A DNA stretch of 64,000 nucleotides, taken from NCBI GenBank assembly GCA_022340885.1, contig JAJDND010000159.1, positions 3,395 to 67,394 of the forward strand. Reading direction: 5' to 3'. Origin of the DNA: Desulfobacterales bacterium. Its GTDB lineage: Bacteria; Desulfobacterota; Desulfobacteria; Desulfobacterales; UBA11574. The position numbers were made by a program, and so were the translations under genes. Shown here one piece after another: positions 37,708 to 62,627 of this stretch. The number at the start of each line of letters is the position of its first letter. The stretch's first letter is position 1. Below the pieces are notes generated by a model. The model was not told the origin of the DNA and made no database searches. It saw only the letters and a program-made list of their open reading frames with translations.

Positions 37708-41261
<3,554 letters not shown>

Positions 41262-41294
41262 CGGCCTTTCGTTTGGAGGAGAGAAGGAAAATCG

Positions 41295-42086: not shown

Positions 42087-42092
42087 AATAGA

Positions 42093-42159
42093 GTTCAGTG
42101 TTCAGATTTCAGAACCGTATCATTGCCCTTTCTGAACGCTGAACCCCTGAACACTGAAC
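42093..42159. terminator. Nested inverted-repeat element built from GTTCAG/CTGAAC hexamers between convergent thyA and asnS; probable bidirectional terminator
   Basis: The outer arms GTTCAGTGTTCAG (42093-42105) and CTGAACACTGAAC (42147-42159) are perfect complements. The inner arms are TTCAGAA (42108-42114) and TTCTGAA (42130-42136). CTGAAC occurs four times in a row at 42133-42159. Confidence 0.45.
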
Positions 42160-42173
42160 GCTTATTTTTAAAA

Positions 42174-43559: not shown

Positions 43560-43593
43560 GGCTCACCTGTCTCCGATGATTTAGATTCATCCA

Positions 43594-45006: not shown

Positions 45007-45061
45007 TTTGAGCTCCGGTATAATACATTATGCACTTAAATTTCTAAAAAGAATATATATC

Positions 45062-47563
45062 ATGAGCATAAACAGCATTCAAGACATCTTACAGCTGGTC
45101 GAACAGCCCAGTCGATATTTAGGTTCTGAAATCAATGCCGTAAAAAAAGATCACAACACGGTCGATTTGCTTTTTGGGTTGGTCTTTCCGGATCTTTATG
45201 AGATCGGAACTTCTCATTTCGGTCTTCAGATCCTCTATCACATCCTCAACACGCATCCGGATATCGCAGCGGAAAGGATCTTTGCACCGGCATCCGATAT
45301 GGCCGCTTATCTGAAATCATCCGGCATATCCCTTGCTTCTCTGGAATCCAAAAAGCCGCTTGCAGAATTTGATATTATCGGCTTCAGTCTTCTTTATGAA
45401 CTTAACTATACGAATATACTTAACATGTTGGATTTATCCGGTCTTCCCTTTCTTGCGCGGGAGCGGGATTTATCTTCTCCTTTTATCGTTGCCGGCGGTC
45501 CTTGCATGTGTAACCCGGAGCCTGTCGCCGATTTTTTTGACGCCATCGTCATCGGAGACGGTGAAAACGTCATCATGGACATGTGTCTGGACTGGTTTGA
45601 ATGGCGGAAAAACGATGCTCGCAATAAAGACGCGCTTTTGAAGCTGTGGTCTCGGATCAAAGGTGTCTATATACCGGCTTATTTTAAGCCAAAATTCGGT
45701 CTTTCGGGTTTTCAGAGGATCTTTCCCAGGTTTAATGATTACCAGCGAATTGATAGAGCGGTTGTCGGAGATCTCGACGAAGCGCCGTTTCCGGATATAC
45801 CCGTCATACCCTATGCCAAACCGATTCACGACCGGTTAAGACTGGAGGTCTCAAGAGGATGCACACGAGGGTGCCGCTTTTGTCAGGCCGGTATGATATA
45901 TCGACCGGTTCGTGAGCGGTCTTTGGGTAAACTACTTTCACTGTCTGAGGCTTCCGTTAATGCAACGGGTTATGAAGACATATCTCTTTTATCTCTAAGT
46001 ACTGGGGATTATAGTTGTATTCAGCCATTAATGGAGAGCATGATGACCTTGTACGGTCACCGGCGCATCGCCCTTTCCTTTCCGTCTTTAAGGGCGGGTA
46101 CGTTGACTCCAAAGTTAATGAAGCTCGTAAAAAAGGTCAGAAAGACCGGTTTTACAATCGCTTTGGAAGCGGGAAGCCAGCGGCTTCGAGATGTCATTAA
46201 TAAAAATATCCAGGAAAAAGACATCTTCGATACCATAAACGATGCCTTTGGCTTGGGGTGGCAGGTCGTAAAATTATATTTTATGGTCGGCCTTCCTACA
46301 GAGACGGATGAGGATGTGCAGGCGATTGTTGACCTTGTGAAAAGGATCAACGCTCACCGGCGGAAAAGCAGGCCTAACAGTCATATCAATGTCAGCGTTG
46401 CGACCTTTATCCCCAAACCGCATACCCCTTTTCAGTGGCTCCCTCAAATTTCTTTGGGCGAATCAAAAGAAAAAATTTCGCTGTTGAAACAAAAGCTTAA
46501 CATCTCAGGGGTTCGCTTCAAATGGCAAAATCCCGAGGTCAGTCTTGTGGAAGGACTTTGGGCGAGGGGTGATCGGCGACTCGGCCGATTACTGGTCACT
46601 GCCTGCAAGAAAGGGTGTCGATTTGACGGCTGGAGTGACCAGTTCAAATACCGGTTGTGGGAAGCCTCTTTTTTGGAAGAGGACGTCAATGTAGATTTTT
46701 ATACGACGCGTGCAAGAGATGCGGCGGAGCCGCTGCCGTGGGACCATATCGACACCATGGTTACAAAGGAATATCTTATTGGAGAATGGGAAAGGGCCGT
46801 AAAGGGAGAGCCGACGAAAGACTGCAGAAACGGCGATTGTAATCAATGCGGGGTATGTGATTTTCAAACCGTAAAGCCCTTCGTGAATGCTGACTGTAAA
46901 GGTCAATCCCCGAATAATCTTGTTACCACACACCAACCGGCCGGAGAATATGGAAAACTTAAGATATCCTTTTCAAAACAAGGGATGGCGAAGTATTTCG
47001 GGCATCTTGAAATGGTAAAAATTTTCTTGCGCGCCATTCGCCGGGCCGAAATTCCGGTCAAATATTCCAAAGGATTTCATCCAAAACCGAACATATCTTT
47101 TGAGGATCCCCTTCCAGTCGGCTTAGAAAGTTTGATGGAAACATTTTATTTGTCCACAGAAAAGAACATCGAACCGGCGCTCATCGTCGAAAGATTAAAC
47201 AAACACCTTCCTGAGGGATTGCATATTCTAAACTGCCGGCCGGCTTCCAAAAATCTTTCCCAAAAAACTTTCGAGCCCGTCAATTATTCGATAACCCTGA
47301 AGAACATGTGTTTCAATGAAGAACAAATAAACGATTTTCTTAACCGGAAAACCTTTATATTCTCACGGCTGAATCGAAAAGGAAAATCCAAAACAATCGA
47401 TTTAAAGGAGATGGTATCTAAGCTAACGCTGCCGGCACCCAATAGGCTGCTTGTAAGCCTGAGAACAGAACCCGGAAAGACGGTGAGACCGTTAGAGGTT
47501 CTAGAGAAAATTTTCGGATTGCCCGAGGAAGAGATCCGGCAGGCGCAGATGGTTAAACTATAA
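45062..47563 (+). CDS. Radical SAM protein (B12-binding-like N-domain + rSAM core, TIGR03960-like) fused to a DUF2344/TIGR03936-like C-terminal domain
   Basis: Start at ATG 45062 (MSINSIQDILQLVEQPSRYLGSEINAV). The ORF-track start at 44837 overlaps htrA antisense. The CX3CX2C motif CTRGCRFC is at 45860-45883. From about 46950 onward: ISFSKQGMAKYFGHLEMVKIFLRAIRRAEIPVKYSKGFHPKPNISF. Confidence 0.87.
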   Translation: MSINSIQDILQLVEQPSRYLGSEINAVKKDHNTVDLLFGLVFPDLYEIGTSHFGLQILYHILNTHPDIAAERIFAPASDMAAYLKSSGISLASLESKKPLAEFDIIGFSLLYELNYTNILNMLDLSGLPFLARERDLSSPFIVAGGPCMCNPEPVADFFDAIVIGDGENVIMDMCLDWFEWRKNDARNKDALLKLWSRIKGVYIPAYFKPKFGLSGFQRIFPRFNDYQRIDRAVVGDLDEAPFPDIPVIPYAKPIHDRLRLEVSRGCTRGCRFCQAGMIYRPVRERSLGKLLSLSEASVNATGYEDISLLSLSTGDYSCIQPLMESMMTLYGHRRIALSFPSLRAGTLTPKLMKLVKKVRKTGFTIALEAGSQRLRDVINKNIQEKDIFDTINDAFGLGWQVVKLYFMVGLPTETDEDVQAIVDLVKRINAHRRKSRPNSHINVSVATFIPKPHTPFQWLPQISLGESKEKISLLKQKLNISGVRFKWQNPEVSLVEGLWARGDRRLGRLLVTACKKGCRFDGWSDQFKYRLWEASFLEEDVNVDFYTTRARDAAEPLPWDHIDTMVTKEYLIGEWERAVKGEPTKDCRNGDCNQCGVCDFQTVKPFVNADCKGQSPNNLVTTHQPAGEYGKLKISFSKQGMAKYFGHLEMVKIFLRAIRRAEIPVKYSKGFHPKPNISFEDPLPVGLESLMETFYLSTEKNIEPALIVERLNKHLPEGLHILNCRPASKNLSQKTFEPVNYSITLKNMCFNEEQINDFLNRKTFIFSRLNRKGKSKTIDLKEMVSKLTLPAPNRLLVSLRTEPGKTVRPLEVLEKIFGLPEEEIRQAQMVKL

Positions 47564-47575
47564 CCCACAGGAAAT

Positions 47576-49108
47576 ATGATGTATAAAAAAATAGTTATCA
47601 ATGTCGCAGATCATGAAACCCGGGTGGCGCTTCTCGAAGACGGAAACATTGCCGAGCTTTTTATCGAGCGGGGAGATGCTTCAGATATTGCCGGGAATAT
47701 ATATAAGGGAAAGGTGCAGCGGGTTTTGCCGGGTATGCAGGCGGCTTTCGTAGATATTGGACTCAAGCAGGCGGCTTTTATATATGTGAGCGATGTCATC
47801 GGCGGAAATTACAGCCCGATTGATGATTTTCCGGAAGACGACGATAACGCTGAAACCAGCATGCCGGTCAATGGATATTTGTCATCGATTCGACGGGAAC
47901 GGCACATTGAGGAACTGATTACAGAAGGGCAGGAAATTATGGTTCAGGCCGCAAAAACACCCATTGGTTCAAAAGGCGCTCGACTGACAACTCATATTTC
48001 TCTGCCCGGACGATTTCTGGTACTCATGCCCACATCAGAGCATATCGGGATATCGAGAAGGATTGAAGATGAAGCCGAACGGGAGCGGCTAAAAACGAAT
48101 ATAGAATCAATTCGGGATGATAACTTCGGATATATCGTTCGGACGGCTGCTGAAGGCGTGCAGAAAGAGAAATTTGAATATGAAATGGGTTTTTTAAAAA
48201 ATTTATGGTCCAGTATTCAACATAAATACCAAACCGCCCCCTCGCCGTCGTTGCTTCACAAGGAAGTCGCCGTCAGTCTGCGCGCCGTTCGAGATCTTTT
48301 ATTACATGAAGCTGAAAAATTGATCATAGACTCCCGTGCAGGTTATGAATCCATTTTAAATTTTCTCGACACGTTTATGCCGAGCCTTAAGGATTCCGTA
48401 GATCTGTATGAGGGACTGGAACCGATATTCGATGCATTTAATCTGGAAGCAGATATTTCGCGAGCGCTAAAAAAGAAGGTATGGCTGAAATCCGGCGGAT
48501 ATATCGTCATCGAACATACGGAAGCGCTGGTGGCCATCGATGTCAACACCGGACGATATGTCGGAAAATATAATCTTGAAGAAACCATTTTAAAGACCAA
48601 TCTCGAGGCAGTGAAAGAAATCGCCTATCAAATACGCCTCCGGGATATCGGAGGCATTATTATTATCGATTTTATAGATATGGAAAAAAAATCCAACCAG
48701 GAAAAGGTATTTAATGCGCTGACGGAAGCGCTCAAAAAAGATAGGAGTAAAACCCATGTACTGCCCATATCGGAATTGGGATTAATACAGATGACTCGGA
48801 AACGCATACGAAAACCGCTGACCAGATTATTATGTGAACCGTGTTTTTACTGCGACGGAGAAGGCTATCTTATATCGAAACAAACCATATGTTATAATAT
48901 TTACAGAGAAATTCTACGTGAGTCCAAAGATATGATCGGGGTTAAAATCAGCTTGAGAGTAAACCCTGAAATTGCCGAGCTTCTTTATGGTGAAGAGAGC
49001 CAGATTATCGTTTCTGCTGAGCGAATCATCGGAAAACGGATCGTTATATACCCGGACGCCAATCTTCACATGGAAGAGTTCGATATTTTTGAAATCATCA
49101 AGGATTAG
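47576..49108 (+). CDS. rng: Ribonuclease G (Rne/Rng family)
   Basis: 510 aa. N-terminal S1 domain (GNIYKGKVQRVLPGMQAAFVDIG), then SGGYIVIEHTEALVAIDVNTG and IGGIIIIDFIDM, the catalytic DNase I-like region of RNase E/G. Confidence 0.9.
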   Translation: MMYKKIVINVADHETRVALLEDGNIAELFIERGDASDIAGNIYKGKVQRVLPGMQAAFVDIGLKQAAFIYVSDVIGGNYSPIDDFPEDDDNAETSMPVNGYLSSIRRERHIEELITEGQEIMVQAAKTPIGSKGARLTTHISLPGRFLVLMPTSEHIGISRRIEDEAERERLKTNIESIRDDNFGYIVRTAAEGVQKEKFEYEMGFLKNLWSSIQHKYQTAPSPSLLHKEVAVSLRAVRDLLLHEAEKLIIDSRAGYESILNFLDTFMPSLKDSVDLYEGLEPIFDAFNLEADISRALKKKVWLKSGGYIVIEHTEALVAIDVNTGRYVGKYNLEETILKTNLEAVKEIAYQIRLRDIGGIIIIDFIDMEKKSNQEKVFNALTEALKKDRSKTHVLPISELGLIQMTRKRIRKPLTRLLCEPCFYCDGEGYLISKQTICYNIYREILRESKDMIGVKISLRVNPEIAELLYGEESQIIVSAERIIGKRIVIYPDANLHMEEFDIFEIIKD

Positions 49109-49224
49109 GTTGAGACTTGACATACTGATCTATTTGTGATTTATAAACTCGATTTAAGTCATGGTTGATATTTTTATCAAGAATTGGAATGAATGCCTCG
49201 GCGATCAAATAAGGATTTTAGCTG

Positions 49225-49359
49225 ATGAAACGAACTTACCAGCCAAGCAAAATTAAGCGAGCAAGAACCCACGGGTTTTTAAAAAGGATGTCCACAAAAC
49301 AGGGCAGAAAGATTATAAACAGGCGCAGATCAAAAGGAAGAGCCCGTTTAACGGTATAA
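49225..49359 (+). CDS. rpmH: 50S ribosomal protein L34
   Basis: Not in the ORF track (44 aa). My hand translation is [44 protein letters not shown]-stop, which reads as canonical L34. Confidence 0.95.
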
Positions 49360-49418
49360 ACAGAGTTGCTCGAAAAAATACAATATAAATAACAGCGGGT
49401 TGAGCAAAGGAGTCATTA

Positions 49419-49772
49419 TTGCGCTTTTGGTTTACCAAGGCGGACAGATTAAGAAAACGTTCCGAATTTCTTAGGCTGGCCAACCAGGGGAAAAAAATTC
49501 AAGACTCAAATTTTATTGCCGTATACTCTCAGAACCGAATTCAAAGAACCCGCCTTGGTGTCACCGTAGCGAGAAAAGTTGGAAATGCCCCAACACGCAA
49601 CCGGATCAAAAGATTATCTCGCGAATATTTTCGGCTAAACAGGCAAACAATTACAGGGCATTGGGATATTAATATTATTGCCAAAAAAAAGGCTGCGAAC
49701 CTGTCGTCAGAACAGGTATTTTTATCCCTAAAAAACATTTTACATAATATATCCAGGAGCTTATATCATTAA
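49419..49772 (+). CDS. rnpA: Ribonuclease P protein component
   Basis: 117 aa. TTG start preceded by AAAGGAG (49406-49412). [14 protein letters not shown]..., [28 protein letters not shown] (the RNR motif). It follows rpmH as in most bacteria. Confidence 0.9.
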
Positions 49773-49794
49773 CAAAATCTTCATTATACCGGCC

Positions 49795-49989
49795 TTGATC
49801 CTGATCAGAGGCTATCAGTTGATCGTGTCTCCGGTCACAGCTCCTGCATGCCGTTTTTATCCAACCTGTTCAGAGTATGCCTATCAGTCTATTTTGCGCT
49901 ATGGATTTCTTAAGGGATGTTATCTTGCGTTAAGGCGACTTTTAAAGTGTCATCCCTTTCATCCGGGAGGAATCGATCCTGTTCCATAA
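49795..49989 (+). CDS. yidD: Membrane protein insertion efficiency factor YidD
   Basis: [62 protein letters not shown] is a textbook YidD sequence. The start (TTG 49795) is uncertain; the frame is open further upstream but has no ATG. Confidence 0.88.
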
Positions 49990-50173
49990 AGTCAGCTTGT
50001 TTGAAAAAGGACCAGGTTTGAATTAAAGCATTCCGATTCATAACAGAAATGTTTGGGCCCTCCGTCTTAAAATCCTGCACCGATGCCGGCTCCGCTTAAC
50101 CTCAATTACATACAGTTTAACTCATCTGAATAAAAGGAATATGTTTGCTTCAAATTGAATCTTGGAGAGGATA

Positions 50174-51841
50174 ATGGAACACGCACGACTACTTATTGCC
50201 ATCGTACTTTCTCTGCTTGTTTTTATTGTTTGGAATGCGTTTTTTCTGGATAAGGAGCAGAAAAAACTTCCCAAACAAAACATAAAAACCCAGGAGCAGG
50301 TCACAAAGGGCTCGGAAAAAACCGCAAAAGAAACAACCGAAACAAAAGCGGCCTTGCCCGAATCGACAACACCGGCAAAAACACCCGCTTTAGAATCGGT
50401 CGCGTCTTCACGAACCATTACGGTCAATCTGCCTTTGTACACGGTAAAAATATCTACAAAAGGCGCTGTGTTCAGAAGTTTCGTGCTCAAAAAGTATCGA
50501 AAAACCATTAAACCCGATTCACCTTTGCTGGACATGATCAATCCGGATTTGACCCAAGGAACAGTACGGGTCGGGTATGCTGAAAATAGCATTCAAGGAC
50601 TTGATAATGCAGTTTTTTCGGCTCATCTGAATAAAGATGCCGTCGATATTAAAGATAAACCCACACCAATCGTCTTTTCTTGGAAATCCCCCCGGGGCGT
50701 CGTGGTTGAAAAGAGATTTTTGTTTTCCCCCAAAACCTATACGATCGGTCTCGATGTTATCATTAAAAACAGCTCCGCACAGCCGATTAAAGACAGCCTG
50801 ACCCTGTCTTTGTTAAAAAAAGGACCGGAAAACGCAAGCAGATACGGTTTTGAAGGGCCGAGCGCGCTGATAAACAACAAGCTCGAGGAGATCAAGATCA
50901 AGAAGATTAAAAAACAAGACGTCTATCCGGGGAAATTGGAATGGATTGCCATCCAAGGCCGTTATTTTCTTTCCGCCGTTATGCCCAATGAAGCGATCGA
51001 CGCCCGTATGCACCTTAGCAATGGGGGCGACATCCTGACGAACACATATGTCCAGCCGGAACAAACGATTCTTCCCGATCAACAACATGTTTTTAAATAT
51101 AAAGTCTTTTTTGGGCCCAAAAGCATGGCCGTGCTAAAGTCCGTAGACTATGACCTCATCAAGGCCGTGAATTTTGGCATGTTTGACATCCTTGCCAAGC
51201 CTTGCGTTTATATCATGAATTATATCTACAAATTCATCCCCAACTATGGGGTGGCCATCATTATTTTGACATTACTCTCCAAAATTATTTTATGGCCCCT
51301 GGGTAATAAGAGCTATAAATCAATGGCTCAAATGAAAAAAATTCAACCGTTGATGGCGGAAATCAAAGAGAAATATAAAGATGACAAGAAAAAAATGAAT
51401 GAAGAGATGATGGGGTTATATAAAACATACAAGGTGAACCCCCTGGGCGGATGTCTTCCGATGGTTGTGCAAATTCCGGTGTTTTTTGCCCTTTACAGGA
51501 TGTTGTATGGCGCCATCGAACTCAGACATGCGCCGTTTATATGGTGGATTAACGACCTGTCGGCGCCCGATCGCCTCTTCAGATTCGATTTTCACATCCC
51601 CTTTATGCAGCCGCCGTACGGAATTCCGGTTTTAACGATAATTATGGGGGTGACCATGTTTATTCAACAAAAAATGTCGCCGCCGGCTGGCGATCCTACT
51701 CAGGCAAAAATGATGATGTTGATGCCGATTGTTTTTACCGTAATTTTTATCAATTTTTCTTCGGGACTTGTTCTGTACTGGCTGGTCAATAATGTCATTT
51801 CCATGATTCAACAGTATTACATTCAGAAGAAAAACGCTTAA
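50174..51841 (+). CDS. yidC: Membrane protein insertase YidC
   Basis: ATG at 50174 is preceded by GGAGAGG. N-terminal TM, large periplasmic domain, and a conserved core (KMKKIQPLMAEIKEKYKDDKKKMNEEMMGLYKTYKVNPLGGCLPMVVQIPVFFALY). Confidence 0.93.
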   Translation: MEHARLLIAIVLSLLVFIVWNAFFLDKEQKKLPKQNIKTQEQVTKGSEKTAKETTETKAALPESTTPAKTPALESVASSRTITVNLPLYTVKISTKGAVFRSFVLKKYRKTIKPDSPLLDMINPDLTQGTVRVGYAENSIQGLDNAVFSAHLNKDAVDIKDKPTPIVFSWKSPRGVVVEKRFLFSPKTYTIGLDVIIKNSSAQPIKDSLTLSLLKKGPENASRYGFEGPSALINNKLEEIKIKKIKKQDVYPGKLEWIAIQGRYFLSAVMPNEAIDARMHLSNGGDILTNTYVQPEQTILPDQQHVFKYKVFFGPKSMAVLKSVDYDLIKAVNFGMFDILAKPCVYIMNYIYKFIPNYGVAIIILTLLSKIILWPLGNKSYKSMAQMKKIQPLMAEIKEKYKDDKKKMNEEMMGLYKTYKVNPLGGCLPMVVQIPVFFALYRMLYGAIELRHAPFIWWINDLSAPDRLFRFDFHIPFMQPPYGIPVLTIIMGVTMFIQQKMSPPAGDPTQAKMMMLMPIVFTVIFINFSSGLVLYWLVNNVISMIQQYYIQKKNA

Positions 51842-51857
51842 TAACGGAGGTTCTATC

Positions 51858-52646
51858 ATGTCACCCAGCTTGGAGTTCGAAGATAAAAACGTTGAAATGG
51901 CTGTCAAAAAAGCCTGTGAAGAACTAAATATACCCAGGGAAAAACTCAAACACGATGTTATCTCGTATGGATCGACCGGGATTTTCGGATTGGTGGGCAC
52001 CAAGAAGGCGCGTATTCGTGTAACCATACCCAGATCTTCCCAAGCAGCGAAAACGGGGACCCCAGATAACAAAAAATCGAAAAAGGTTTTATCCAAACAC
52101 GTTGTCGAAGATACCGGCTCTAAAAGCGATGCCTCGATTATTGAAGACACAGCAGACTTTCATGCAGAGGACGATGCCAAAAACGTCGGCAAAGAAGCAT
52201 TGCAGCGTATCGTCGATTTTATCACCCAAGATGCCACCATCAGCATCCGGGAGGAATCGAACAGAATCTTTTTTAATGTCAACGGCGGGAACTCTGCCGT
52301 TCTTATCGGAAAGCGCGGACAAACCCTTGATGCGATACAATATCTCGTTGATAAGATTGTAAATAATAAAAGAAAAGAGCGTGTTGCCGTTCAGGTGGAT
52401 GTTGAAGGCTACATGGAGAAACGACGCGTCAATCTGGAAAAAGCAGCTGCAAGACTTGCAGAAAAAGTTAAGAGAACCGGAAAACCGGCAACGCTGGGAC
52501 AAATGAATTCACATGATCGAAGAATCGTTCATATTGCCTTGAAAAATGACGCTATGGTCAGAACCCAGAGCTTGGGGCAGGGAACCGTAAGGAAACTTGT
52601 GATATTCCCCAAAAAAAATTCGTCGCGGAAAAATAATGGAAGATGA
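51858..52646 (+). CDS. jag: RNA-binding protein Jag (Jag_N + KH + R3H)
   Basis: 262 aa. N-terminal FEDKNVEMAVKKACEELNI, KH-like LIGKRGQTLDAIQYL, and R3H region LGQMNSHDRRIVHIALK. The position between yidC and mnmE is canonical. Confidence 0.88.
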   Translation: MSPSLEFEDKNVEMAVKKACEELNIPREKLKHDVISYGSTGIFGLVGTKKARIRVTIPRSSQAAKTGTPDNKKSKKVLSKHVVEDTGSKSDASIIEDTADFHAEDDAKNVGKEALQRIVDFITQDATISIREESNRIFFNVNGGNSAVLIGKRGQTLDAIQYLVDKIVNNKRKERVAVQVDVEGYMEKRRVNLEKAAARLAEKVKRTGKPATLGQMNSHDRRIVHIALKNDAMVRTQSLGQGTVRKLVIFPKKNSSRKNNGR

Positions 52647-54051
52647 TACCATCGCCGCCGTTGCGACGCCTTTTGGGATCGGCGGAATCGGGATTATTAA
52701 AATCTCCGGCAAAGATGCTTTTTATATTGCAGAAGCTATCTTTCAAAGATCCAATAATCTGCCGCATATTGCCACAGATGAACCCCGCGAACACGGTTTT
52801 TCCTTAAAATCCCACCGCCTTTATCACGGACATATCGTCCATCCGAAAACCCAAAAGGTCCTGGATGAAGTTCTTCTGACAGCCATGAAGGCACCTCTGA
52901 CATACACAAGAGAGGATGTTATTGAAATAAACACGCATTCAGGATCCGTTGTGCTGGCTTCGATTCTGGACTTGGTCATAAAGACCGGCGCGAGGCTGGC
53001 GGATCCCGGCGAATTTACAAAAAGGGCTTATCTCAGCGGCCGCATCGATCTTACCCAAGCCGAAGCCGTGATCGATATCATTAATTCCAAAACCGAAATA
53101 TCCCTTGAAATGGCAATGGCGCAGATAAAAGGCGGGCTGAAGCGTCGCGTGGAGTCCATAAGAGGTTCGTTGATCAATATTTTAACCGAAATAGAAGCGG
53201 CCATAGATTTTCCCGAAGATATTGAAGATGATGTTGACGAAACATCCCTTGTTAATATTTTAGAACAAAATATTATTGTTGAATTATCCGAAATGGTTAA
53301 GCAGCATGAGTGCGCTCATTTTCTGAGAGACGGCTTTAAAATAATGGTCCTTGGCCATCCCAATGTCGGCAAATCGAGTCTTATGAACCGGCTGATTCAG
53401 AGAGATCGAGCGATAGTAACGCCAATTCCCGGAACAACGAGGGATATCATCGAAGAAACATTGAACATACGCGGCATACCGTTTATAATAGCTGACAGCG
53501 CCGGTCTTCATGAGACCCGGGATCCGGTTGAAATCATCGGCATGAAAAAAACTCGGGAATATCTCGAGGGATCGGATTTGGTCCTTTTTATGATCGATGC
53601 CGATGATCCATTCACCCGGGAGGATCAACAGATATATCAGTCCGTCAAGGACAAGCGGGTCATCTTGGTTATCAATAAAATCGATTTGATAAAGGACGGT
53701 CTTGAACGCGACATTCCTGAAACCTGGAATAAAATGCCCGTCAGCAGGATATCGGCACTGTATGGCGACGGGATGAATACGCTAAAAAATATGATTGTGC
53801 AGCATACAACGGGGAACGCACATCTGGAATTGAAAGATACCGTCATCCCCAATCTGAGGCATAAAAACGCGCTTTTAAAAAGTCTTGAACACGCGATAGC
53901 TGCAAAAGAAGAGATTCGAAACGGTACGCCGTTGGAATTGATCGCCATTGATATTCAGGAAGCAATGGACCGCCTGGGCGAGATTATCGGCGTCACCGCC
54001 AAAGAAGATGTCGTGGATCATATTTTCAGCCGATTCTGTATAGGCAAATAA
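52636..54051 (+). CDS. mnmE: tRNA uridine-5-carboxymethylaminomethyl modification GTPase MnmE
   Basis: 471 aa. DTIAAVATPFGIGGIGIIKISG, G1 GHPNVGKSSLMN, G3 DSAGL, NKIDL, and the C-terminal FCIGK. Confidence 0.95.
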   Translation: MEDDTIAAVATPFGIGGIGIIKISGKDAFYIAEAIFQRSNNLPHIATDEPREHGFSLKSHRLYHGHIVHPKTQKVLDEVLLTAMKAPLTYTREDVIEINTHSGSVVLASILDLVIKTGARLADPGEFTKRAYLSGRIDLTQAEAVIDIINSKTEISLEMAMAQIKGGLKRRVESIRGSLINILTEIEAAIDFPEDIEDDVDETSLVNILEQNIIVELSEMVKQHECAHFLRDGFKIMVLGHPNVGKSSLMNRLIQRDRAIVTPIPGTTRDIIEETLNIRGIPFIIADSAGLHETRDPVEIIGMKKTREYLEGSDLVLFMIDADDPFTREDQQIYQSVKDKRVILVINKIDLIKDGLERDIPETWNKMPVSRISALYGDGMNTLKNMIVQHTTGNAHLELKDTVIPNLRHKNALLKSLEHAIAAKEEIRNGTPLELIAIDIQEAMDRLGEIIGVTAKEDVVDHIFSRFCIGK

Positions 54052-54162: not shown

Positions 54163-54900
54163 ATGGACATAGATTTCAAGCCATTTTTTGAAAAATACAA
54201 GGTGCTTTCGACCATAGCTGATGAGTTGTTTGCAAAAACACAAAAAGAATTCGCAGAATGCATTAAATGTGAAATCAAATGCGCAGATTGCTGTCACGCA
54301 TTGTTCGATTTGACCCTGATAGAAGCGATGTATATCAATCATCGGTTTAATAAGATGTTTGAAGGCGAAAAAAGAGAGGCGATTTTAGAAAAAGCGAATC
54401 GTGCGGATCGAAAAACCTACATGATCAAAAGAAAAGCATACAAGGACAAAGAAGCCGGGAAAAACGAGGTTGAAATTTTGATGGAAATTGCTGCCGAACG
54501 GGTCAGATGCCCGTTCCTTAACGAAAATGATATGTGCGAGCTTTACGACGATCGACCCATCACGTGCAGGCTGTACGGGATGCCGACGTCTACGGGCGGT
54601 ATTTCGCACACCTGCGGAAAATCAGGATTTTCTGAAGGGACGCCATATCCCACAGCCAATCTGGATGTGATTCAAAAAAAGCTTTACGAGATTTCTGCCG
54701 AATTCGTCACTCACATCAAAACCCGGCATATCAAGATGGCCGATATGCTCGTTCCGCTGTCCATGGCAATTCTCACCGAATACAATGAAAAATACCTGGG
54801 CATAGTGGATGAGACTAAGACCTTAAAGGATCAAGGAAAAGAACATGAGCGTCACATCACCGGAAGACGAGGAAAAACGAAAAAAAGCCATTTTCGATAG
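54163..54900 (+). CDS. YkgJ-family cysteine-cluster protein (second paralogue)
   Basis: 245 aa. CIKCEIKCADCCHALF (CxxCxxCC type) and RCPFLNENDMCELYDDRPITCRLYG. The basic tail (GRRGKTKKSHFR) may be read-through past the functional end. Confidence 0.8.
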   Translation: MDIDFKPFFEKYKVLSTIADELFAKTQKEFAECIKCEIKCADCCHALFDLTLIEAMYINHRFNKMFEGEKREAILEKANRADRKTYMIKRKAYKDKEAGKNEVEILMEIAAERVRCPFLNENDMCELYDDRPITCRLYGMPTSTGGISHTCGKSGFSEGTPYPTANLDVIQKKLYEISAEFVTHIKTRHIKMADMLVPLSMAILTEYNEKYLGIVDETKTLKDQGKEHERHITGRRGKTKKSHFR

Positions 54901-55207
54901 TATGTCGCCCAGAAGGCAGAAACATATCCTGAAAAAAGGGTATAAAAAATGGGACCCTTTTCAGGAACCCAAAGATCCCATCGATATCAGAAGGGACAAA
55001 ACCAAGCGAACGACGAAAATGCTGGTGCGGGAATTTTTACAAACAAAGCAGATGCAGGAATACAGCAACGCCTATGGTCAGGGTGTTTTCGAGATTTGCC
55101 TGGGCATTATCAACGATGATGAACGCTACAGGGCCATGTTCGAATTTTCAGTGTGGTACAACAGGCTGTTAAAACGAGAAGGGTATAAGTCGTCCGAAGA
55201 ATCCTAA
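54845..55207 (+). CDS. Hypothetical protein (120 aa, lysine/arginine-rich N-terminus)
   Basis: ATG at 54845 is preceded by AGGAAAAG and overlaps the upstream gene by 56 nt. The alternative ATG at 54902 (1 nt after the upstream stop) has no SD. I recognise no family. Confidence 0.55.
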   Translation: MSVTSPEDEEKRKKAIFDSMSPRRQKHILKKGYKKWDPFQEPKDPIDIRRDKTKRTTKMLVREFLQTKQMQEYSNAYGQGVFEICLGIINDDERYRAMFEFSVWYNRLLKREGYKSSEES

Positions 55208-55214
55208 AAAAACG

Positions 55215-55259
55215 GGTCCGGAATCCGGGCCTGAAACCCAATTCGCCGGATTCCGGACC
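55215..55259. terminator. Bidirectional hairpin between convergent genes
   Basis: GGTCCGGAATCCGG (55215-55228) and CCGGATTCCGGACC (55246-55259) are perfect 14-nt complements separated by 17 nt. They sit between the stops at 55207 (+) and 55266 (-). Confidence 0.5.
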
Positions 55260-55265
55260 GATCGG

Positions 55266-55577
55266 CTATTTTTTCATCTGTTTGTTGAAAATCATTTCTG
55301 CTTTATTGGCCATGTCTTCTGCTTTTTGAGCTGAAGCCTCTGCCGCGTCCGCGGCTTTTTCAGCGCGCATAGCAGCCGCGTTTGCCTTTTCAACCTGTTG
55401 AGCACAATCGCATTCTTTAGCCAATGCCTTGGCGTCCTTGGCATCTTGACTGGCTTGCTGAACCTGCTGCTCCAACGTCTTCATCTGCTGGCTGGTTGCG
55501 CAGCTCATCAGAGAAACAGCCAGTGCCAACGACAACACAAGCCCCAGTACCGCATACATTTTTCTTTTTCTACGCAT
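55266..55577 (-). CDS. Lpp-like alanine-rich coiled-coil lipoprotein with C-terminal Lys-Lys
   Basis: 103 aa. Signal peptide plus lipobox (SLMSC). The mature ~78 aa is Ala/Gln/Lys/Glu-rich and helical in character (AAMRAEKAADAAEASAQKAEDMANKAE). It ends ...KQMKK-stop, verified from cag atg aaa aaa tag. Confidence 0.7.
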   Translation of the reverse strand: MRRKRKMYAVLGLVLSLALAVSLMSCATSQQMKTLEQQVQQASQDAKDAKALAKECDCAQQVEKANAAAMRAEKAADAAEASAQKAEDMANKAEMIFNKQMKK

Positions 55578-55619
55578 ATAATTGCCTCCTCCTTTTTCGT
55601 GATTTTTAACAATCGATTT

Positions 55620-56561
55620 TCATTGAACAGCTGATGCCTTACCTGTGAATGCGACATCACCCCCCTTCTTTAAAAACCCCACTCGAATCGGAACGCCGCT
55701 TTGTTTTTCAAGAGCGTCATTGACCTTTGCAACGGAAACGCTGCGTAACCAACCCAACTCTTGCAATCGATGAATGGTTTGCGTTTGTATGTCTGGAATT
55801 CTTTTGTAAATATCCGGATGTACCTCTATAAAAATATTGTGGTCCCGGATTCCAATTTTTACGGGTTCATAAATGATTTCAACCGGTGTGTTAACGGATA
55901 TATTTTTAAAAAGTATCGCAATATCCTCCGGATATAGACGAATGCATCCATGACTGACAAGCCTTCCCACGCCCCAGGGAAAATTGGTTCCGTGGATACC
56001 GTAACCTTTTAAAGACAATCCAATCCAGTATTTTCCCAAAGGATTGTTCGGCCCGGGCGGTATCGAAGCCGTCCCATATTTGGCCCTCAGCGACTTGGGA
56101 ACCGTCCAGGTAGGATTAACCTGTCGGTCGATAACGTGAGCCACAGCGCCGGGGGTTTCCCAGCCGATAACACCGATGCCCACAGGATATGTGATCACCA
56201 TGCTGATTTTCGGAAAAAAGTGATACAGTCTCATTTCCGGCAGATTAATCACGATACCGTGTAATTTGGTGGACGGTAAAATCCATTGGGTCGGTATGAC
56301 AAGATTTTGTCCGGGGCCGGGGCTCCATGGGTCCATATCCGGGTAGAGTCCGGTAATTTCAAGATAACCCAGATCAAATTTTCGGGCAATATCCAGGAGT
56401 GTTTCTTTGGGCGCGACCACATGATGCCGTATGGCGCCCACAAGTGTTTTGTTTGCACTGTAACTGAAACCGCCGGAAATTGCTTGTTGGTTTAATATAA
56501 CTATAAAAATAATTATCGACAAAAAGCAAATTTTATTTGAATAAGAAGGTTGAAATCGCAT
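55620..56561 (-). CDS. L,D-transpeptidase (LysM + YkuD domains)
   Basis: 313 aa. LysM-like [24 protein letters not shown], and the YkuD catalytic segment [29 protein letters not shown]. Confidence 0.9.
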
Positions 56562-56693: not shown

Positions 56694-59600
56694 CTATGCC
56701 GGGGGTTCTTTCATCGATGGTACATCATGCCTGTGAGCATGTTCCCATCGCTTATCGAGAAAATAAAGGATCGGGACCGCCATTCTCGATATGAACAATG
56801 ATGCTACCTCGCCCGCCATCAAAGATATGGCAAGACCCTGAAAAATCGGATCGTAAAGAATTACGGAAACGCCCACCACCACCGCGGCCGCGGTGAGCAT
56901 CATGGGTCGAAACCGCACGGCGCCCGCATCGATGACCGCCAGATCAAGGGGCATGCCTTGTTCGAGGCGAAGTTCGATAAAATCGACCAGGATGATGGAG
57001 TTTCTGACAACAATTCCCGCACCGGCAATAAACCCGATCATGGATGTTGCCGTAAAAAAGGCACCCAGTGCCCAATGCGCAGGCAGGATTCCAATCAGCG
57101 AAAACGGAATAACGGCCATAATGACCAGTGGTGTGGTGAAGGACTGAAACCATCCCACAACCAGCACGAAAATCAGCAGCAATACCACGGCAAAAGAAAT
57201 CCCGAGATCCCGAAAGACTTCATAGGTAATCTGCCATTCTCCGTCCCATTTCATTTCAAACTTTCGGTCGCTGGAAGGAAGATGAGCATAGTTTTGAACG
57301 ACACGGTATCCTTCCGGCAATGGGATGGCGTTGATTTTATTCTTCATTTCCAGAATAGCATATACGGGACTTTCCTTAACTCCCGCAACATCCCCGAGGA
57401 CATACACCACAGGCATTAAATTTTTATGAAAAATATTCAAATCCGGCGGGGTCTTACGAACGTGGATCAGCGACGAAACCGGCACCATACGGCCGTCGGC
57501 CGATAAAAGCTTCAGTGATTTAAGCCGTTGAATTCCGGCGCGCGCAGACTGGGGAAGCCGCAGCAGTATGGGAACATCCTCTCTTTCCCTGGGTTGATGA
57601 AGCAATCCAGTCTGTTGTCCTTTAAGGGCCAGCTGAAGGGTGCGATTAATCCGGTCCACGCTGATTCCGTGAAGCGCGGCTTTTTCCCTGTCAATTTCGA
57701 TTTCGTAACGGGGCTGAGTGTTATTCATGTACCAGTTCACATCGACCACGCCGGGTGTCTTCTCAAAAATATTCATAATATCGGCAGCAATCTGTATTTG
57801 ACGTTTGTAGTTGGGACCGTAAATTTCGGCCACAAGCGGCGACAAAACCGGTGGGCCCGGCGGAACCTCGACCACCTGAACCCGTGCATGGTATTTGTCT
57901 GCAATGGTTTTAAGAACCGGACGCACGCGTTTGGCGATTTCATGGCTCTGTTCCTTTCGATCTGCTTTATTTACCAGGTTGACATGAATGCCTGCCTGAT
58001 AAACCTTTTTGCGCAGGTAATAATGGCGGACCATCCCGTTAAAACTAAGGGGTTCCGGAGTTCCCACATAAAGTTCATAGTCCGTGACTTCATTAACGGT
58101 TTTAATATAATCTCCCATTTCCGTTGCAGCTGCAGCGGTATCTTCCAATGTAGCGGCATGGGGCATGTTGATGATGACTTGAAATTCACTCTTATTGTCA
58201 AAAGGGAGCATTTTAACCTGAACCAATCCGATTCCAATCATGGCACATGACAGGATAAGAAGGACAACGATGCCGATAAGAAAAACCCATCGCCAGAATC
58301 GATTTTCTATCAGAGGGGTCATAATACGTCGATAAAGGCGTGTGCTCCAGTCTTCATCATCATCATGTACATCGGCGGCCGTTGGTTTGTCGTGTTTTAA
58401 CAGCCGGACTGAAGCCCAGGGGGTAACGATAAATGCAACAGCAAGTGAAAAGATCATCGCGGCTGACGCACCCACGGGAATGGGTCTCATGTAGGGCCCC
58501 ATCAGCCCGCCGACAAACGCCATGGGCAAAATGGCGCTGATGACGGTTAATGTGGCCAAAATGGTTGGATTGCCGACTTCGTCCACCGCTTCAATGGCAA
58601 TGGTGCTCTTTGGACGGTTTCGATTTTCCGGAAGATGAAAATGACGGACGATATTTTCAACCACCACAATGGCATCGTCCACGAGGATTGCGATGGAAAA
58701 TATCAGGGCAAACAGCGTAATCCGGTTCAACGTATAACCATATAGATAAAATATTGCCAGGGCCAGAGCCAGTGTCACCGGAATGGCAATGGCAACAACG
58801 CCGGCTTCGCGATGCCCCAGCACAAACCAGATGAGAGCGGTTACGGAGGCAAAGGCGATCATCAGATGAAACAGCAATTCATTGGATTTTTCTTCGGCGC
58901 TGTTGCCATAGTTTCGGGTCACGGTGATTTGGACGTTGTCGGGGATGACGCTGCCCCTTATTTTGCGGAGTCGTTCAAGGACTTTGTCGGCCACGATAAT
59001 GGCATTGGATCCTTTTCGTTTGGCCACGGTAAGCGTAACAGCCGGAAACCCTCCTACCGAGGAAGGAGGGGTGGGAATGTGTTTTAATTTGGCCGCCGGC
59101 CCGGTGTTAAAAAAAACGTATTGGGACGGTTCTCCGGGACCATCAAATATATTTGCAACATCTCGAAGATAAACAGGTTTTCCGTCATGAACACCAATCA
59201 CCACGCTTTGGACATCTTCAATTGTTTTTAAAAATCCGCCGGTATGAACAATAACCTCTCCTTTTACGGACGGGTATTCGCCGGTGTCGGATTCCTGGTT
59301 TGCAGCGGTCACCATAGCGGCTACCCGCTCAAGATCGAGACCGTATGCCGACAGTTTCTCCGGATTGAAATCCACCCGGACCTGGCGGGGATCGCCGCCG
59401 ATAAGGTTCGTCACGCCAACATTATCTACGCGTTTGACTGTATTTTCCGCCTCTGCAGCCACGCGGCGCAAGGTATAGTGATCGTAGCCTTTCCCCCAGA
59501 ATGTCAGCGCCAGAATCGGAACGTCATCAATATATCGCGGTTTTATGAGCGGCGGCGATACCGACCAGGGAATCAAGTCATAGTTGGCCCTGAGCTTTGA

Positions 59601-59948
59601 CTGAACCCGCACGATAGACTTTTCCTCGTCCTGGCCGACGTAAAACCGGACCACCACCATAGACATGCCGGGGCTGGATGTGGAATAAACATATTCCACC
59701 CCCGGAATTTCCCACAACAGCTTTTCCATGGGACCGGTGATGCGCTGTTCGACTTCTTTGGAACTGGCACCTGGCATTTTCACAAAAATGTCGATCATGG
59801 GTACGATAATCTGTGGTTCTTCTGCTCTGGGAAAAGCGATGAGCGCTGCGGCGCCCAGCAGAATTGACGCGATAATAAAGAGAAGGGTCAACTTGGAGTC
59901 GATAAAAAAACGGGCCACTTTGCCGGCTGTGCCGAATTTTTGCGCCAT
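56694..59948 (-). CDS. RND efflux transporter permease (AcrB/AcrD/AcrF superfamily, hydrophobe/amphiphile-type TM4)
   Basis: 1084 aa. 12-TM, two-loop architecture. The TM4 motif [13 protein letters not shown] is HAE-like rather than the heavy-metal type. Confidence 0.95.
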
Positions 59949-59951
59949 GTC

Positions 59952-61079
59952 TTATGCCTCCACCTTCATGCCGTTTGTGAGATTTGCAGGGGGTTTTACG
60001 ACGTAACGCTCTCCTTCAGTAAGGCCCGAAAGAACTTCTATGGATAAACCAAAAATTCTGCCGGTTCGTATGAGGCGAAATTTTGCGATCTGCGCGTTAT
60101 CCAAGAGATAAATGCCGGTCAACTGCCCTGAATGAATAACCGCTGTTTGCGGGATCAGCATCAATTCGGAACTGCCGATTTGAATGGCCCCCCGAGCGAA
60201 CATTCCGGATCGAAGTCCGCGGTCCATCGGCAATCGCACCTTGATCAAAAAAGAAAAGCTTTTTGTATCCACGGCCGGAAAAATATCCTGCACAGATCCA
60301 GGAAAACTTTTGTTGTTGAGGGCGGGAACCGTCACGGTTACTTTTTGGTTCAAGGTTACAAGATGGGCATACTGTTCGGGCACCACCAGGTCGGCGACAT
60401 AACGATTTTTGTCTTCAATTGAAAACATGGGTTTTTCCGGCGCGGCAAGGTCTCCCACATCGACCATTTTAGCCCGAATGATACCGTCATAAGGCGCCAG
60501 TATAACGGTATCTTTCGCCCTGACATGAGCCAATGCCAGGGCTGCTTCGGCCTCTTTGACACGCTCTTTTGCGGCGGCCAGGGCGGCTTGGGCCTGCTGG
60601 TAGCGGGATTTGATCTCATCAAACTCCTGCGCACTGGCGGATTCGTCTTTCATGAGGTTCCGGTAGCGATTGTAGGTGGTCGTCGCAAGTTCTGCGCCCG
60701 CCTTGGCCGAGGTTTCGGCACGCCGGGCTGCACCAAGCGCGGCTTTTGCCTGGTGAAGCATTGCTTTGGCCTGCCGGTTGTCGATGGTCGCCAGCCGATC
60801 CCCGGTTTTAACCGGGTCTCCTTCCCGAACAAAGACTTTTTCCACGGATCCCATAACCTTGCTGGAAATGGTGGAAACGGTTTTGGCGCTGACGGTTCCG
60901 ACGGATTCGTAAATCGCAGGATGACGGATAATCTTAGCGGTGGCGACGACGGTTCTTACGCTCCCTTTATTAGATGCTTTGGATTTGACGTTTCCAGGTT
61001 CAATTTTTTCGCCGCAACCCATGAAGAGAATGACCGCGATAGAAATTAAAAAATACAAAAATGGTTTGTTTTTCCGCAT
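59952..61079 (-). CDS. RND efflux periplasmic adaptor (lipoprotein)
   Basis: Start at the ATG at 61077-61079, preceded by AAGGAG (MRKNKPFLYFLISIAVILFMGCGEK, lipobox FMGC). The ORF-track start at 61106 adds 9 aa. Lipoyl/hairpin/barrel order. Confidence 0.88.
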   Translation of the reverse strand: MRKNKPFLYFLISIAVILFMGCGEKIEPGNVKSKASNKGSVRTVVATAKIIRHPAIYESVGTVSAKTVSTISSKVMGSVEKVFVREGDPVKTGDRLATIDNRQAKAMLHQAKAALGAARRAETSAKAGAELATTTYNRYRNLMKDESASAQEFDEIKSRYQQAQAALAAAKERVKEAEAALALAHVRAKDTVILAPYDGIIRAKMVDVGDLAAPEKPMFSIEDKNRYVADLVVPEQYAHLVTLNQKVTVTVPALNNKSFPGSVQDIFPAVDTKSFSFLIKVRLPMDRGLRSGMFARGAIQIGSSELMLIPQTAVIHSGQLTGIYLLDNAQIAKFRLIRTGRIFGLSIEVLSGLTEGERYVVKPPANLTNGMKVEA

Positions 61080-61229
61080 GACCGACTCCTTGAAAAATAC
61101 GAGCAATTGTGATACAATACATTGTATTTATTGTGTATATGGTTTGCGAATTTGAATTCCCCACCACTTGCATTACGCGATAAATTCAAATAGCGGCATA
61201 GCCGCGTTTCATAAAATCGTTGCACGATT

Positions 61230-62627
61230 TTATTGAAAATCACTGTTTATGGTCCCCGCTGCCAGTTCAAGCTCGATGCGGGCCACCTTGTAGTCGTGAA
61301 GCGCCCTGAAATAGCTCGTTCGGGCCTGCTGGCGGGCCAGCTCTGCATCGAGAAGGCCGACAATGGTTAACAACCCGTTGTTGTAGCGATTTTTCACAAT
61401 GCGTAATCCTTCTTCAGCCTGATCCACCGCGATTTTCGCTACCCGTATTCTTTCCCGGGCGCTTTGAGCTTTTAGAAAAGCCTGCCGGGTTTGGACTTGA
61501 ACACCCAGAGCCACGCTTTTTTGTATTTCCCTGACACGGGCCAGCATAGATTTTGCGGCTCTGGTTTCTTCGGTGATGCGGTTTCCGCTAAAAATGTTGA
61601 GTCGCATCACGGCGCCGAAGCTGTAATTGTTCGCCGAATCATTGAAATTTTCAGAATTGATTTCATAATTTCCGACCAGATCGATATCCGGGTAATGACC
61701 GGCGCGTGCTTTTTTCACCTCTTTTTCGGCGATTTTTTCCTCCAGACGCAGATTTTCCATTTCCGGGCGTTTGGACAAGGCGGTCGCAATCCACGAGTCG
61801 ATGGTCCCGGTGATATCGGCGCCAATAGTCAGGGGTGTGACCGGATTCAAGGAATCGGCTTTTCCCGAACCCATGGCAGCGTTCAGCATCGCCTCGCTTA
61901 TTTTATACCGGCTTTGGGTCAAAAGCTGCTGTTGCTTCAAATCGGCAATATGAACCTCGGCTCTTAAAAGATCGCTTTTGACCACAAAGCCTCGGTTATA
62001 GCGCGACCGGATCATATTCAGATTGGCCTTCGACGTGTCAAGGGCCTGTTGGGTCACCATGATATTTTTCTGGGATAAAACAAGACCGGCATATGCTGTA
62101 GCGGTTTTGGCGATCACGTTTTGCCGGGTTCGTTCAAGGGTCAAGGTTGCCGTCTGCAGGTTCAATTTGGACTGTTCCCAGCCGATTTTTGTTCGGCCGC
62201 CTTTAAAAACAGACCAGGAGACGGACACGTCGGATGCAAAGTTGTTGATGGGATCCGGATTATTCAGCAGTTGGGGATTGAAGTCCGCCAGGGTAATCAC
62301 CTCTTGATTCAGCTTGGTGCCGAACGCATACATGGGGTTGGTCGTTCGGTTGAATGTTTCCGAAAAATTGACCTGGGGGTAAAAACCCGCCAACGCCTTG
62401 GTTGAATTGGATTTGAAGGCTTCCACCTGAAAAATTGCCGCTGTTATTTCAGGATTTTGTTTCACGGCAATCCGAATCGCTTCCGTCATGGACAATGGCT
62501 CGGGAGACGGTTGCCCTGGATCGTCTGCTGCGCCGGCAAATGTCGGGCAAAGAATAGATATACAGACGACGATCGATACCAATAGATAAATATGAAAGGG
62601 TTTCATAAGACTTCTCCAAATTGTCAA
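61230..62627 (-). CDS. TolC-family outer-membrane efflux protein
   Basis: 465 aa. Signal peptide (…PTFAGAAD) and two TolC repeats with long coiled coils. First gene of the TolC-MFP-RND operon. Confidence 0.9.
   Translation of the reverse strand: MTIWRSLMKPFHIYLLVSIVVCISILCPTFAGAADDPGQPSPEPLSMTEAIRIAVKQNPEITAAIFQVEAFKSNSTKALAGFYPQVNFSETFNRTTNPMYAFGTKLNQEVITLADFNPQLLNNPDPINNFASDVSVSWSVFKGGRTKIGWEQSKLNLQTATLTLERTRQNVIAKTATAYAGLVLSQKNIMVTQQALDTSKANLNMIRSRYNRGFVVKSDLLRAEVHIADLKQQQLLTQSRYKISEAMLNAAMGSGKADSLNPVTPLTIGADITGTIDSWIATALSKRPEMENLRLEEKIAEKEVKKARAGHYPDIDLVGNYEINSENFNDSANNYSFGAVMRLNIFSGNRITEETRAAKSMLARVREIQKSVALGVQVQTRQAFLKAQSARERIRVAKIAVDQAEEGLRIVKNRYNNGLLTIVGLLDAELARQQARTSYFRALHDYKVARIELELAAGTINSDFQ

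Follow-up and report, generated by a model that had tools for sequence, protein, structure and literature searches.

Does a bacterium outside the Gammaproteobacteria staple its outer membrane covalently to peptidoglycan? The question is raised by a 64,000-nucleotide (nt) stretch of DNA from an uncultured Desulfobacterales bacterium of the sulfate-reducer type (contig JAJDND010000159.1 of assembly GCA_022340885.1, positions 3,395 to 67,394 of the forward strand; hereafter, the window), in which a gene for a YkuD-type L,D-transpeptidase (Ldt) is followed directly by a gene for a small lipoprotein that ends in Lys. Two surveys placed Lpp-type tethers in ~3% of genomes, all of them within a subset of the Gammaproteobacteria, and described Lpp as "a very recent evolutionary invention" (10.1101/2021.05.31.446380; 10.1101/2021.02.21.432140). 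An initial annotation of the window had described the pair as an analogous tether with its dedicated ligase, and both open reading frames (ORFs) are indeed present at the coordinates given there, on the minus strand and separated by 42 nt (Table 1). We consider it probable, on the evidence set out below, that they form a two-gene operon of the Lpp/OprI type, whose products would link the outer membrane covalently to peptidoglycan, with the adjacent Ldt as the ligase.

The lipoprotein, a precursor of 103 amino acids (aa), begins with MRRKRKMYAVLGLVLSLALAVSLMSC, followed by ATSQ, and thereby displays (i) a basic n-region (MRRKRK), (ii) a hydrophobic core, and (iii) the lipobox L-M-S-C. Residues 1-25 constitute a type II signal peptide, and Cys26 (codon 55500-55502) is the predicted lipidated residue. 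The mature part comprises 78 aa, 27% of which are Ala, and ends in IFNKQMKK-stop, with the terminal Lys103 encoded at 55269-55271; the LMSC lipobox, the mature part of ~78 aa, and the KQMKK end that had been annotated were all recovered in the sequence. The protein matches Pfam PF11839 (Alanine_zipper/OprI) with 31.6 bits, above the gathering score of 23.1, its residues 31-103 covering positions 2-69 of the 69-position model, and it gave no match to Pfam LPP (PF04728) at E <= 1. On this profile evidence, it belongs, as a divergent and longer protein, to the OprI/alanine-zipper family and lies outside Lpp sensu stricto.

Two profiles were used to examine this relationship further, namely a close-family profile (A2) and an alignment of 103 clean members of the wider family (A3). 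A search of the PDB with A2 found no Lpp, and A2 gave weak, partial matches to single OprI or Lpp sequences, while a broad profile search of the PDB returned Lpp chains at E ~0.01-0.05, amid generic coiled coils. The relationship to OprI became visible only once the broad A3 profile met the OprI family profile instead of single sequences: hhalign comparison of A3 with 40 OprI-family proteins gave a probability of 96.3% (E 1.5e-9, 81 columns), in an alignment spanning from the signal peptide to the common terminal Lys, with ~14 additional residues in the new family. The initial suggestion of a tether is supported, but "analogous" is too weak a term for it, since a PF11839 score above the gathering threshold and a 96% match to the OprI family indicate homology.

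When the close-family profile was scanned against 1.84 billion representative proteins at E <= 1e-3, it retrieved 157 clusters at 50% identity; among the best 150 of the 157 cluster representatives, the lipobox is present in 140 and the terminal Lys in 136, and the alignments mostly reach the protein's own C-terminus. All intact sequences among the 28 close homologues found also end in K, such that the terminal Lys withstands the check on its conservation, and length, lipobox, and C-terminus are conserved across both the close homologues and the 157 clusters. The C-terminal consensus of the 103 A3 members is [I/V/M]-F-x-[K/Q/R]-x-[M/L/V]-[K/R/S]-K, in outline hydrophobic-F-x-basic-x-M-basic-K, which parallels the M-L-E-K-A-S-R-K end of OprI. 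The mature part of these members has a median length of 80 residues, compared with 64 in OprI and 58 in Lpp. Gene calls for the exact lipoprotein exist on at least 22 metagenome contigs and in every case follow the Ldt.

The mature region has the heptad pattern of an alanine zipper, in which Ala and hydrophobic residues occupy 0.8-0.9 of the a and d positions over most of its length, as in OprI and Lpp. AlphaFold2, run with A3, gave an all-helical monomer with a predicted local distance difference test (pLDDT) score of 94.4, and the zipper and the confident helix together bear out the helical mature region of the initial annotation. A Foldseek comparison of this monomer with the PDB returned no matches, a result that is uninformative for one long helix.

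As a separate observation, the codons of Cys56-Asp57-Cys58 (55404-55412) coincide with a shift in heptad register and a break in the modeled helix, both of which are weighed below. The Cys at mature position 31 is kept in 20 of 21 close relatives, the window protein adding a second Cys two residues on, and an internal Cys occurs in 48 of the 103 wider-family members. Such residues may make inter-chain disulfides, for which the redox-active LppB of Salmonella offers a comparison (10.1101/2025.11.13.688167).

The partner enzyme is clearly a YkuD protein. Its YkuD domain (residues 103-229; Pfam PF03734, E 2.9e-20) carries the catalytic motif SHGCIR at residues 203-208, which fits (S/T)xGCh(R/N), and the protein aligns with PDB entries 9tyw (E 1e-51 across residues 40-293) and 4lzh (E 2e-40 across residues 52-294). 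It is 35-38% identical to the oprI-adjacent Ldt of Stutzerimonas, to E. coli LdtE, and to the YkuD+SPOR Ldts of Geobacterales and Syntrophales described below. Its NCBIfam scores were 165 bits for LdtE, 156 for PRK10190, and 143 for PRK10260, none of which reached the equivalog cut-offs of 480-583. Judged from these comparisons, the enzyme is a member of the ErfK/YbiS/YcfS/YnhG lineage and an orthologue of no single E. coli enzyme. That lineage mixes Lpp-attaching and 3-3 cross-linking enzymes, whose function cannot be assigned by sequence or phylogeny (PMC10434034). An assignment of function from the NCBIfam scores was likewise rejected, as the three values do not discriminate.

The initial label of "LysM-YkuD" stands in its second half, with the SHGCIR-bearing domain, and is weak in its first: the module at ~residues 45-92 scored only 15 bits against Pfam LysM (E 0.025; cut-off 20.9), matching model positions 1-25 of 43. 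Because E. coli LdtE has a significant LysM domain at the homologous position (E 1.4e-8), we regard the module of the window enzyme as degenerate and LysM-like. The Ldt_C match in its tail is also weak (15.9 bits; cut-off 26.8).

The lipoprotein gene is flanked by expression signals. A Shine-Dalgarno sequence, GGAGGAGG, lies at 55585-55592, with the ATG of the lipoprotein gene 7 nt on, and constitutes a strong ribosome-binding site. Past the lipoprotein gene, folding of the sequence recovered an intrinsic terminator with a G+C-rich stem of 14-15 bp followed by seven T/U bases (-29.9 kcal/mol, z = -2.9 vs shuffles); a consensus terminator scan made no call on it, because its loop is longer than 8 nt. 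A promoter scan of the locus found nothing beyond the shuffled expectation, and no convincing internal promoter or terminator was seen between the two genes. Since the genes are co-directional, they are predicted to form a probable bicistronic unit. The window contains only one YkuD gene, the partner of the lipoprotein, a second one being absent from it, and, aside from one internal false start, only one small lipobox ORF that fits the lipoprotein pattern; the pairing of the two is far above chance.

The pairing also extends to related genomes. A synteny scan with one genome per species yielded 14 loci, 13 of them labeled Desulfobacterales, Desulfobacteraceae, or delta-proteobacterial metagenome-assembled genomes (MAGs) and one labeled Nitrospinaceae. 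A YkuD gene lies directly upstream of the lipoprotein gene, on the same strand, in all 14; the genes are ~40-50 nt apart at 13 related loci and 111 nt apart in L020. Thirteen loci have SHGCIR as the Ldt motif; L020 has SRGCIR instead, and its lipoprotein, only 38% identical to that of the window, still ends in ...IFNKRMNK. In L008, L014, L018, L019, and L020, the RND efflux operon upstream and mnmE-jag-yidC downstream are swapped for other genes; the Ldt-lipoprotein pair is therefore a conserved unit, and its synteny, as raised by the initial annotation, is maintained in spite of differing flanks. The Nitrospinaceae-labeled locus, L011 (CAXMTB010000117.1, "uncultured Nitrospinaceae bacterium"), has the same ACR_tran-Ldt-lipoprotein context and a lipoprotein of 72% identity; as this context is identical to that of the Desulfobacterales loci, the contig is probably mis-binned and not evidence of the family in Nitrospinota.

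More distant members, found by searching with A3, come from Syntrophales and "Deltaproteobacteria" MAGs, where NCBI names them "Lpp/OprI family alanine-zipper lipoprotein," and include one hypothetical protein of Oryzomonas japonica (Geobacterales); many carry the label "murein lipoprotein" from the Joint Genome Institute. Among seven of these that were looked up (Oryzomonas, Syntrophales, and other MAGs), five have YkuD genes within ~1 kb. Two types of neighbor were seen, namely (i) a YkuD+SPOR enzyme with the motif TNGC[I/L/M]R, which scores ~173 bits to the ErfK lineage, on par with the window Ldt, and (ii) at four of the five loci, beside the first type, a TPR/YfiO-YkuD protein with the motif TxGCIA. 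The best NCBIfam match of the TxGCIA paralogues is LdtF_DpaA_YafK, at the domain level, with 46-50 bits compared with a cut-off of 365. E. coli DpaA detaches Lpp from peptidoglycan (10.1101/2021.02.21.432140), and amidases that release Lpp or OprI from peptidoglycan have been suggested to be recognizable by an SxGChA motif (PMC10434034; 10.1101/2021.02.21.432140). Given this proposed mark of detachment, the clusters of the distant relatives look like cassettes for attachment, substrate, and detachment.

In the pathway that we infer from these data, the 103-aa precursor would be exported and then receive its lipid at Cys26 before cleavage by signal peptidase II. As residue +2 is Ala, as it is in 86 of the 103 A3 members, the mature lipoprotein would be delivered into the outer membrane's inner leaflet, from where its 78-residue mature part would span the periplasm as an alanine-zipper coiled coil, which is probably trimeric. 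The epsilon-amino group of Lys103 would then be joined to the L-center of meso-diaminopimelate (mDAP) in a peptidoglycan stem peptide. The joining enzyme would be the periplasmic YkuD Ldt encoded upstream, acting through the catalytic Cys of SHGCIR, and not a paralogue encoded elsewhere; this role as the dedicated ligase is suggested by genomic context, and it would resemble those of LdtA/B/C for Lpp in E. coli and of LdtPae2 for OprI in P. aeruginosa.

The closest parallel to this scheme is OprI, which is anchored to peptidoglycan via its C-terminal Lys by LdtPae2, the sole Ldt of the ErfK/YbiS/YcfS/YnhG lineage in P. aeruginosa and an enzyme that is also active in E. coli (PMC10434034). The two systems share (i) a type II signal peptide, alanine-zipper heptads, and a basic residue followed by an obligatory C-terminal Lys; (ii) a Pfam family, with family profiles that align end to end; and (iii) a partner Ldt of the same lineage, the genes also being adjacent in Stutzerimonas. 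There, oprI is followed by a convergent gene for a 320-aa ErfK-lineage Ldt (L022, 4001-5328) that is 73.5% identical to PDB 9tyw and is presumably the LdtPae2 orthologue. No Ldt gene adjoins a second OprI paralogue, which was seen in a P. aeruginosa assembly (L025). Unlike OprI, with its mature part of 64 aa, the window protein has ~two more heptads; its C-terminus conforms to IF-x-K-x-M-K-K, whereas that of OprI is ML-E-K-A-S-R-K; its close relatives have a conserved internal Cys; and its gene is co-directional with that of the Ldt, which comes first, whereas the Stutzerimonas genes converge. The hosts also differ (Gammaproteobacteria vs Desulfobacterota), and anchoring is experimental for OprI, whereas it is predicted from sequence here.

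The Lpp system of E. coli, with LdtA/LdtB/LdtC and DpaA/LdtF, resembles the window pair in the proposed mechanism (a trimeric outer membrane lipoprotein that YkuD enzymes link to mDAP via its C-terminal Lys), in its alanine-zipper heptads, in having an adjoining Ldt gene (lpp followed by a convergent ldtE in E. coli K-12; L021, 2922-4226), and in the DpaA-type (xxGCIA) paralogue, which occurs in the clusters of relatives of the window locus. In contrast to Lpp, the window protein lacks a PF04728 match and has marginal PDB matches (E ~0.01), and its mature part and C-terminus (78 aa; MKK) differ from those of Lpp (58 aa; YRK); further, the neighbor ldtE encodes a cross-linker, is convergent, and forms no operon with lpp. 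The adjacency of oprI to an Ldt gene and of lpp to ldtE makes an Ldt beside a tether lipoprotein a theme already present in Gammaproteobacteria. Ldt enzymes also attach Coxiella LimB, alphaproteobacterial beta-barrel outer membrane proteins, and Dickeya OutB (cited in 10.1101/2021.02.21.432140 and PMC12274547). These are like the proposed tether in that YkuD enzymes join envelope proteins covalently to mDAP outside Enterobacterales, and unlike it in that attachment occurs via an N-terminal Gly or Ala or an internal Lys, the substrates being beta-barrels or other unrelated proteins and not alanine-zipper lipoproteins with a C-terminal Lys.

Several findings weigh against an operon for covalent attachment. 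The best-scoring NCBIfam model for the window lipoprotein, NF040598 (Lpp/OprI family alanine-zipper lipoprotein), gives 40.5 bits, slightly short of the cut-off of 43, and profile scores run high for coiled coils rich in Ala; relatives at L020, L028, L030, and L026 pass the same cut-off with 47-67 bits. The heptad register shifts near Cys56/Cys58, and the AlphaFold2 helix has its sole break at residues 56-57, so that a straight, uninterrupted rod is not certain. No nearby Ldt was found for two of the seven distant members looked up, and E. coli LdtE, although encoded beside lpp, is a 3-3 cross-linking enzyme with no part in Lpp attachment (10.1101/2021.02.21.432140). Our literature search also found no biochemical evidence for any Desulfobacterota member of the family.

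The behavior of LdtE gives rise to the alternative that survives best, namely that the lipoprotein is a genuine Lpp/OprI protein attached by another Ldt, while its neighbor is a 3-3 cross-linker like LdtE or LdtD and the adjacency reflects shared regulation of envelope genes. The cross-linker next to E. coli lpp provides a direct precedent (10.1101/2021.02.21.432140), the LdtE model is the top NCBIfam match of the window Ldt, and sequence cannot assign function within the ErfK lineage (PMC10434034). However, the LdtE score barely exceeds those of the other ErfK-family models, all of which are far under their cut-offs, and the Desulfobacterales genes are co-directional, 40-50 nt apart, and kept together in 14 of 14 loci with changed flanks, whereas the E. 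coli and Stutzerimonas genes are convergent. A DpaA-type paralogue in the clusters of relatives fits a cycle of attachment and detachment. Moreover, pseudomonads have a single ErfK-lineage Ldt, which serves as their OprI ligase (PMC10434034), and oprI has an Ldt of the same lineage as its neighbor. We therefore regard a cross-linking neighbor as unlikely, while giving it more credence than the other alternatives.

A second alternative retains the coiled coil and dispenses with the bond: the lipoprotein would act non-covalently as a spacer, a scaffold, or an Ldt regulator, with its terminal Lys kept, for example, for binding peptidoglycan or the enzyme without ligation. The covalent bond is itself deduced, a large fraction of E. 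coli Lpp occurs in free form, the conserved internal Cys is suggestive of further redox or disulfide chemistry, and the helix break leaves room for folds that are not straight rods. Against this stand (i) the conservation of a terminal residue on a low-complexity coiled coil, which is a signature of the Ldt acceptors Lpp and OprI; (ii) the retention of the terminal Lys down to ~30% identity, in proteins that end at the same aligned position; and (iii) the specific linkage to YkuD enzymes, including the DpaA type. We consider a non-covalent role quite improbable. The idea that the small ORF is not a gene, or that it resembles OprI only because its sequence is rich in Ala, as an artefact of composition, could draw on the weak pairwise profile-to-sequence comparisons with OprI and Lpp and on the PDB Lpp matches at E ~0.01 amid generic coiled coils, but is effectively refuted by the conservation data, namely the exact protein on at least 22 contigs and the length, lipobox, and C-terminus kept by homologues and clusters alike, as well as by the ribosome-binding site and terminator around the gene and the end-to-end match between family profiles.

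An operon for covalent attachment, if this reading is right, bears on how far such tethers reach. Both of the surveys cited above searched by PF04728 alone (10.1101/2021.05.31.446380; 10.1101/2021.02.21.432140), and PF04728 misses even OprI, whose anchoring is experimental. One of them noted DpaA-like enzymes in delta-proteobacteria "lacking Lpp" and raised the question of their substrate (10.1101/2021.02.21.432140). Annotation pipelines already label Desulfobacterota relatives as Lpp/OprI family; a literature search of incomplete coverage found no paper on an Lpp/OprI-type tether in Geobacter, Desulfovibrio, or Desulfobacterota. What the comparison usefully adds is the conserved operon, along with what looks like an attach/detach cassette in relatives, in a second phylum. 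Together, the locus and its ~150 clusters show a sister group of OprI in another phylum, one that keeps the terminal Lys and is linked to Ldt and DpaA-type enzymes.

Whether Lpp/OprI-type stapling is widespread, and probably old, among Desulfobacterota (Desulfobacterales, Geobacterales, and Syntrophales), represented by a distinct long-rod subfamily that is accompanied by a dedicated Ldt and, in many lineages, by a DpaA-type paralogue, is a question on which we find the scales evenly poised. If it is, the tether of this phylum would be a mature rod of ~80 residues with the C-terminus IF-x-K-x-M-K-K, attached by an ErfK-like Ldt and, in many lineages, detached by a DpaA-type YkuD paralogue, and stapling would be no recent gammaproteobacterial invention. 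Confirmation of the bond would revise the picture of how the outer membrane is fastened in diderms beyond Gammaproteobacteria and would give the "orphan" DpaA-like enzymes of delta-proteobacteria a candidate substrate. The gene pair is compact enough for direct testing in E. coli.

Table 1. Features of the Ldt-lipoprotein locus, of its surroundings in the window, and of TxGCIA-type YkuD genes at related loci. Coordinates without a locus prefix are window positions.
Feature	Location	Strand	Remarks
L,D-transpeptidase gene, 313 aa	55620..56561	-	N-terminal signal/anchor, LysM-like module, YkuD, Ldt_C-like tail
Intergenic spacer, 42 nt	55578..55619	-	Contains Shine-Dalgarno GGAGGAGG
Lpp/OprI-family alanine-zipper lipoprotein gene, 103 aa	55266..55577	-	PF11839, lipobox, terminal Lys
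Intrinsic terminator past lipoprotein gene	55206..55259	-	Stem 55215-55259, T/U run 55206-55212
RND efflux operon	56694-62627	-	Ends 132 nt upstream of Ldt, same strand
OEP gene of RND operon	61230-62627	-	
Membrane-fusion protein gene of RND operon	59952-61106	-	
ACR_tran pump, 1084 aa	56694-59948	-	
120-aa ORF	54845-55207	+	Overlaps 3' end of CxxCxxCC gene by 56 nt
CxxCxxCC (PF03692) gene	54163-54900		
dnaN	37708-38826	+	
gyrB	38823-41261	+	
RNase E/G	47576-49108	+	
rnpA	49419-49772	+	
yidC	50162-51841	+	
jag	51858-52646	+	
mnmE/trmE	52636-54051	+	
TxGCIA YkuD paralogue	L026 3427-4440	+	Oryzomonas japonica; motif TKGCIA; TPR/YfiO-like N-terminal fusion
TxGCIA YkuD paralogue	L030 398-1342	+	TPR/YfiO-like N-terminal fusion
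TxGCIA YkuD paralogue	L033 98-1012	+	TPR/YfiO-like N-terminal fusion
TxGCIA YkuD paralogue	L034 221-1153	+	TPR/YfiO-like N-terminal fusion
TTGCIA ORF, 170 aa	L020 5532-6044	-	Stand-alone, 1.2 kb downstream

Among the neighboring genes, the RND efflux operon is retained in the closest relatives; a functional link between it and the Ldt pair was considered and rejected, as the operon is absent from the loci with altered flanks listed above. A gene set of the replication-origin type occupies 37708-54051 on the plus strand, and no dnaA was identified within the part of the window examined. The 120-aa ORF between this set and the pair gave no Pfam or NCBIfam match; it converges on the lipoprotein terminator, and six contigs bearing the exact lipoprotein all have it as a predicted gene.

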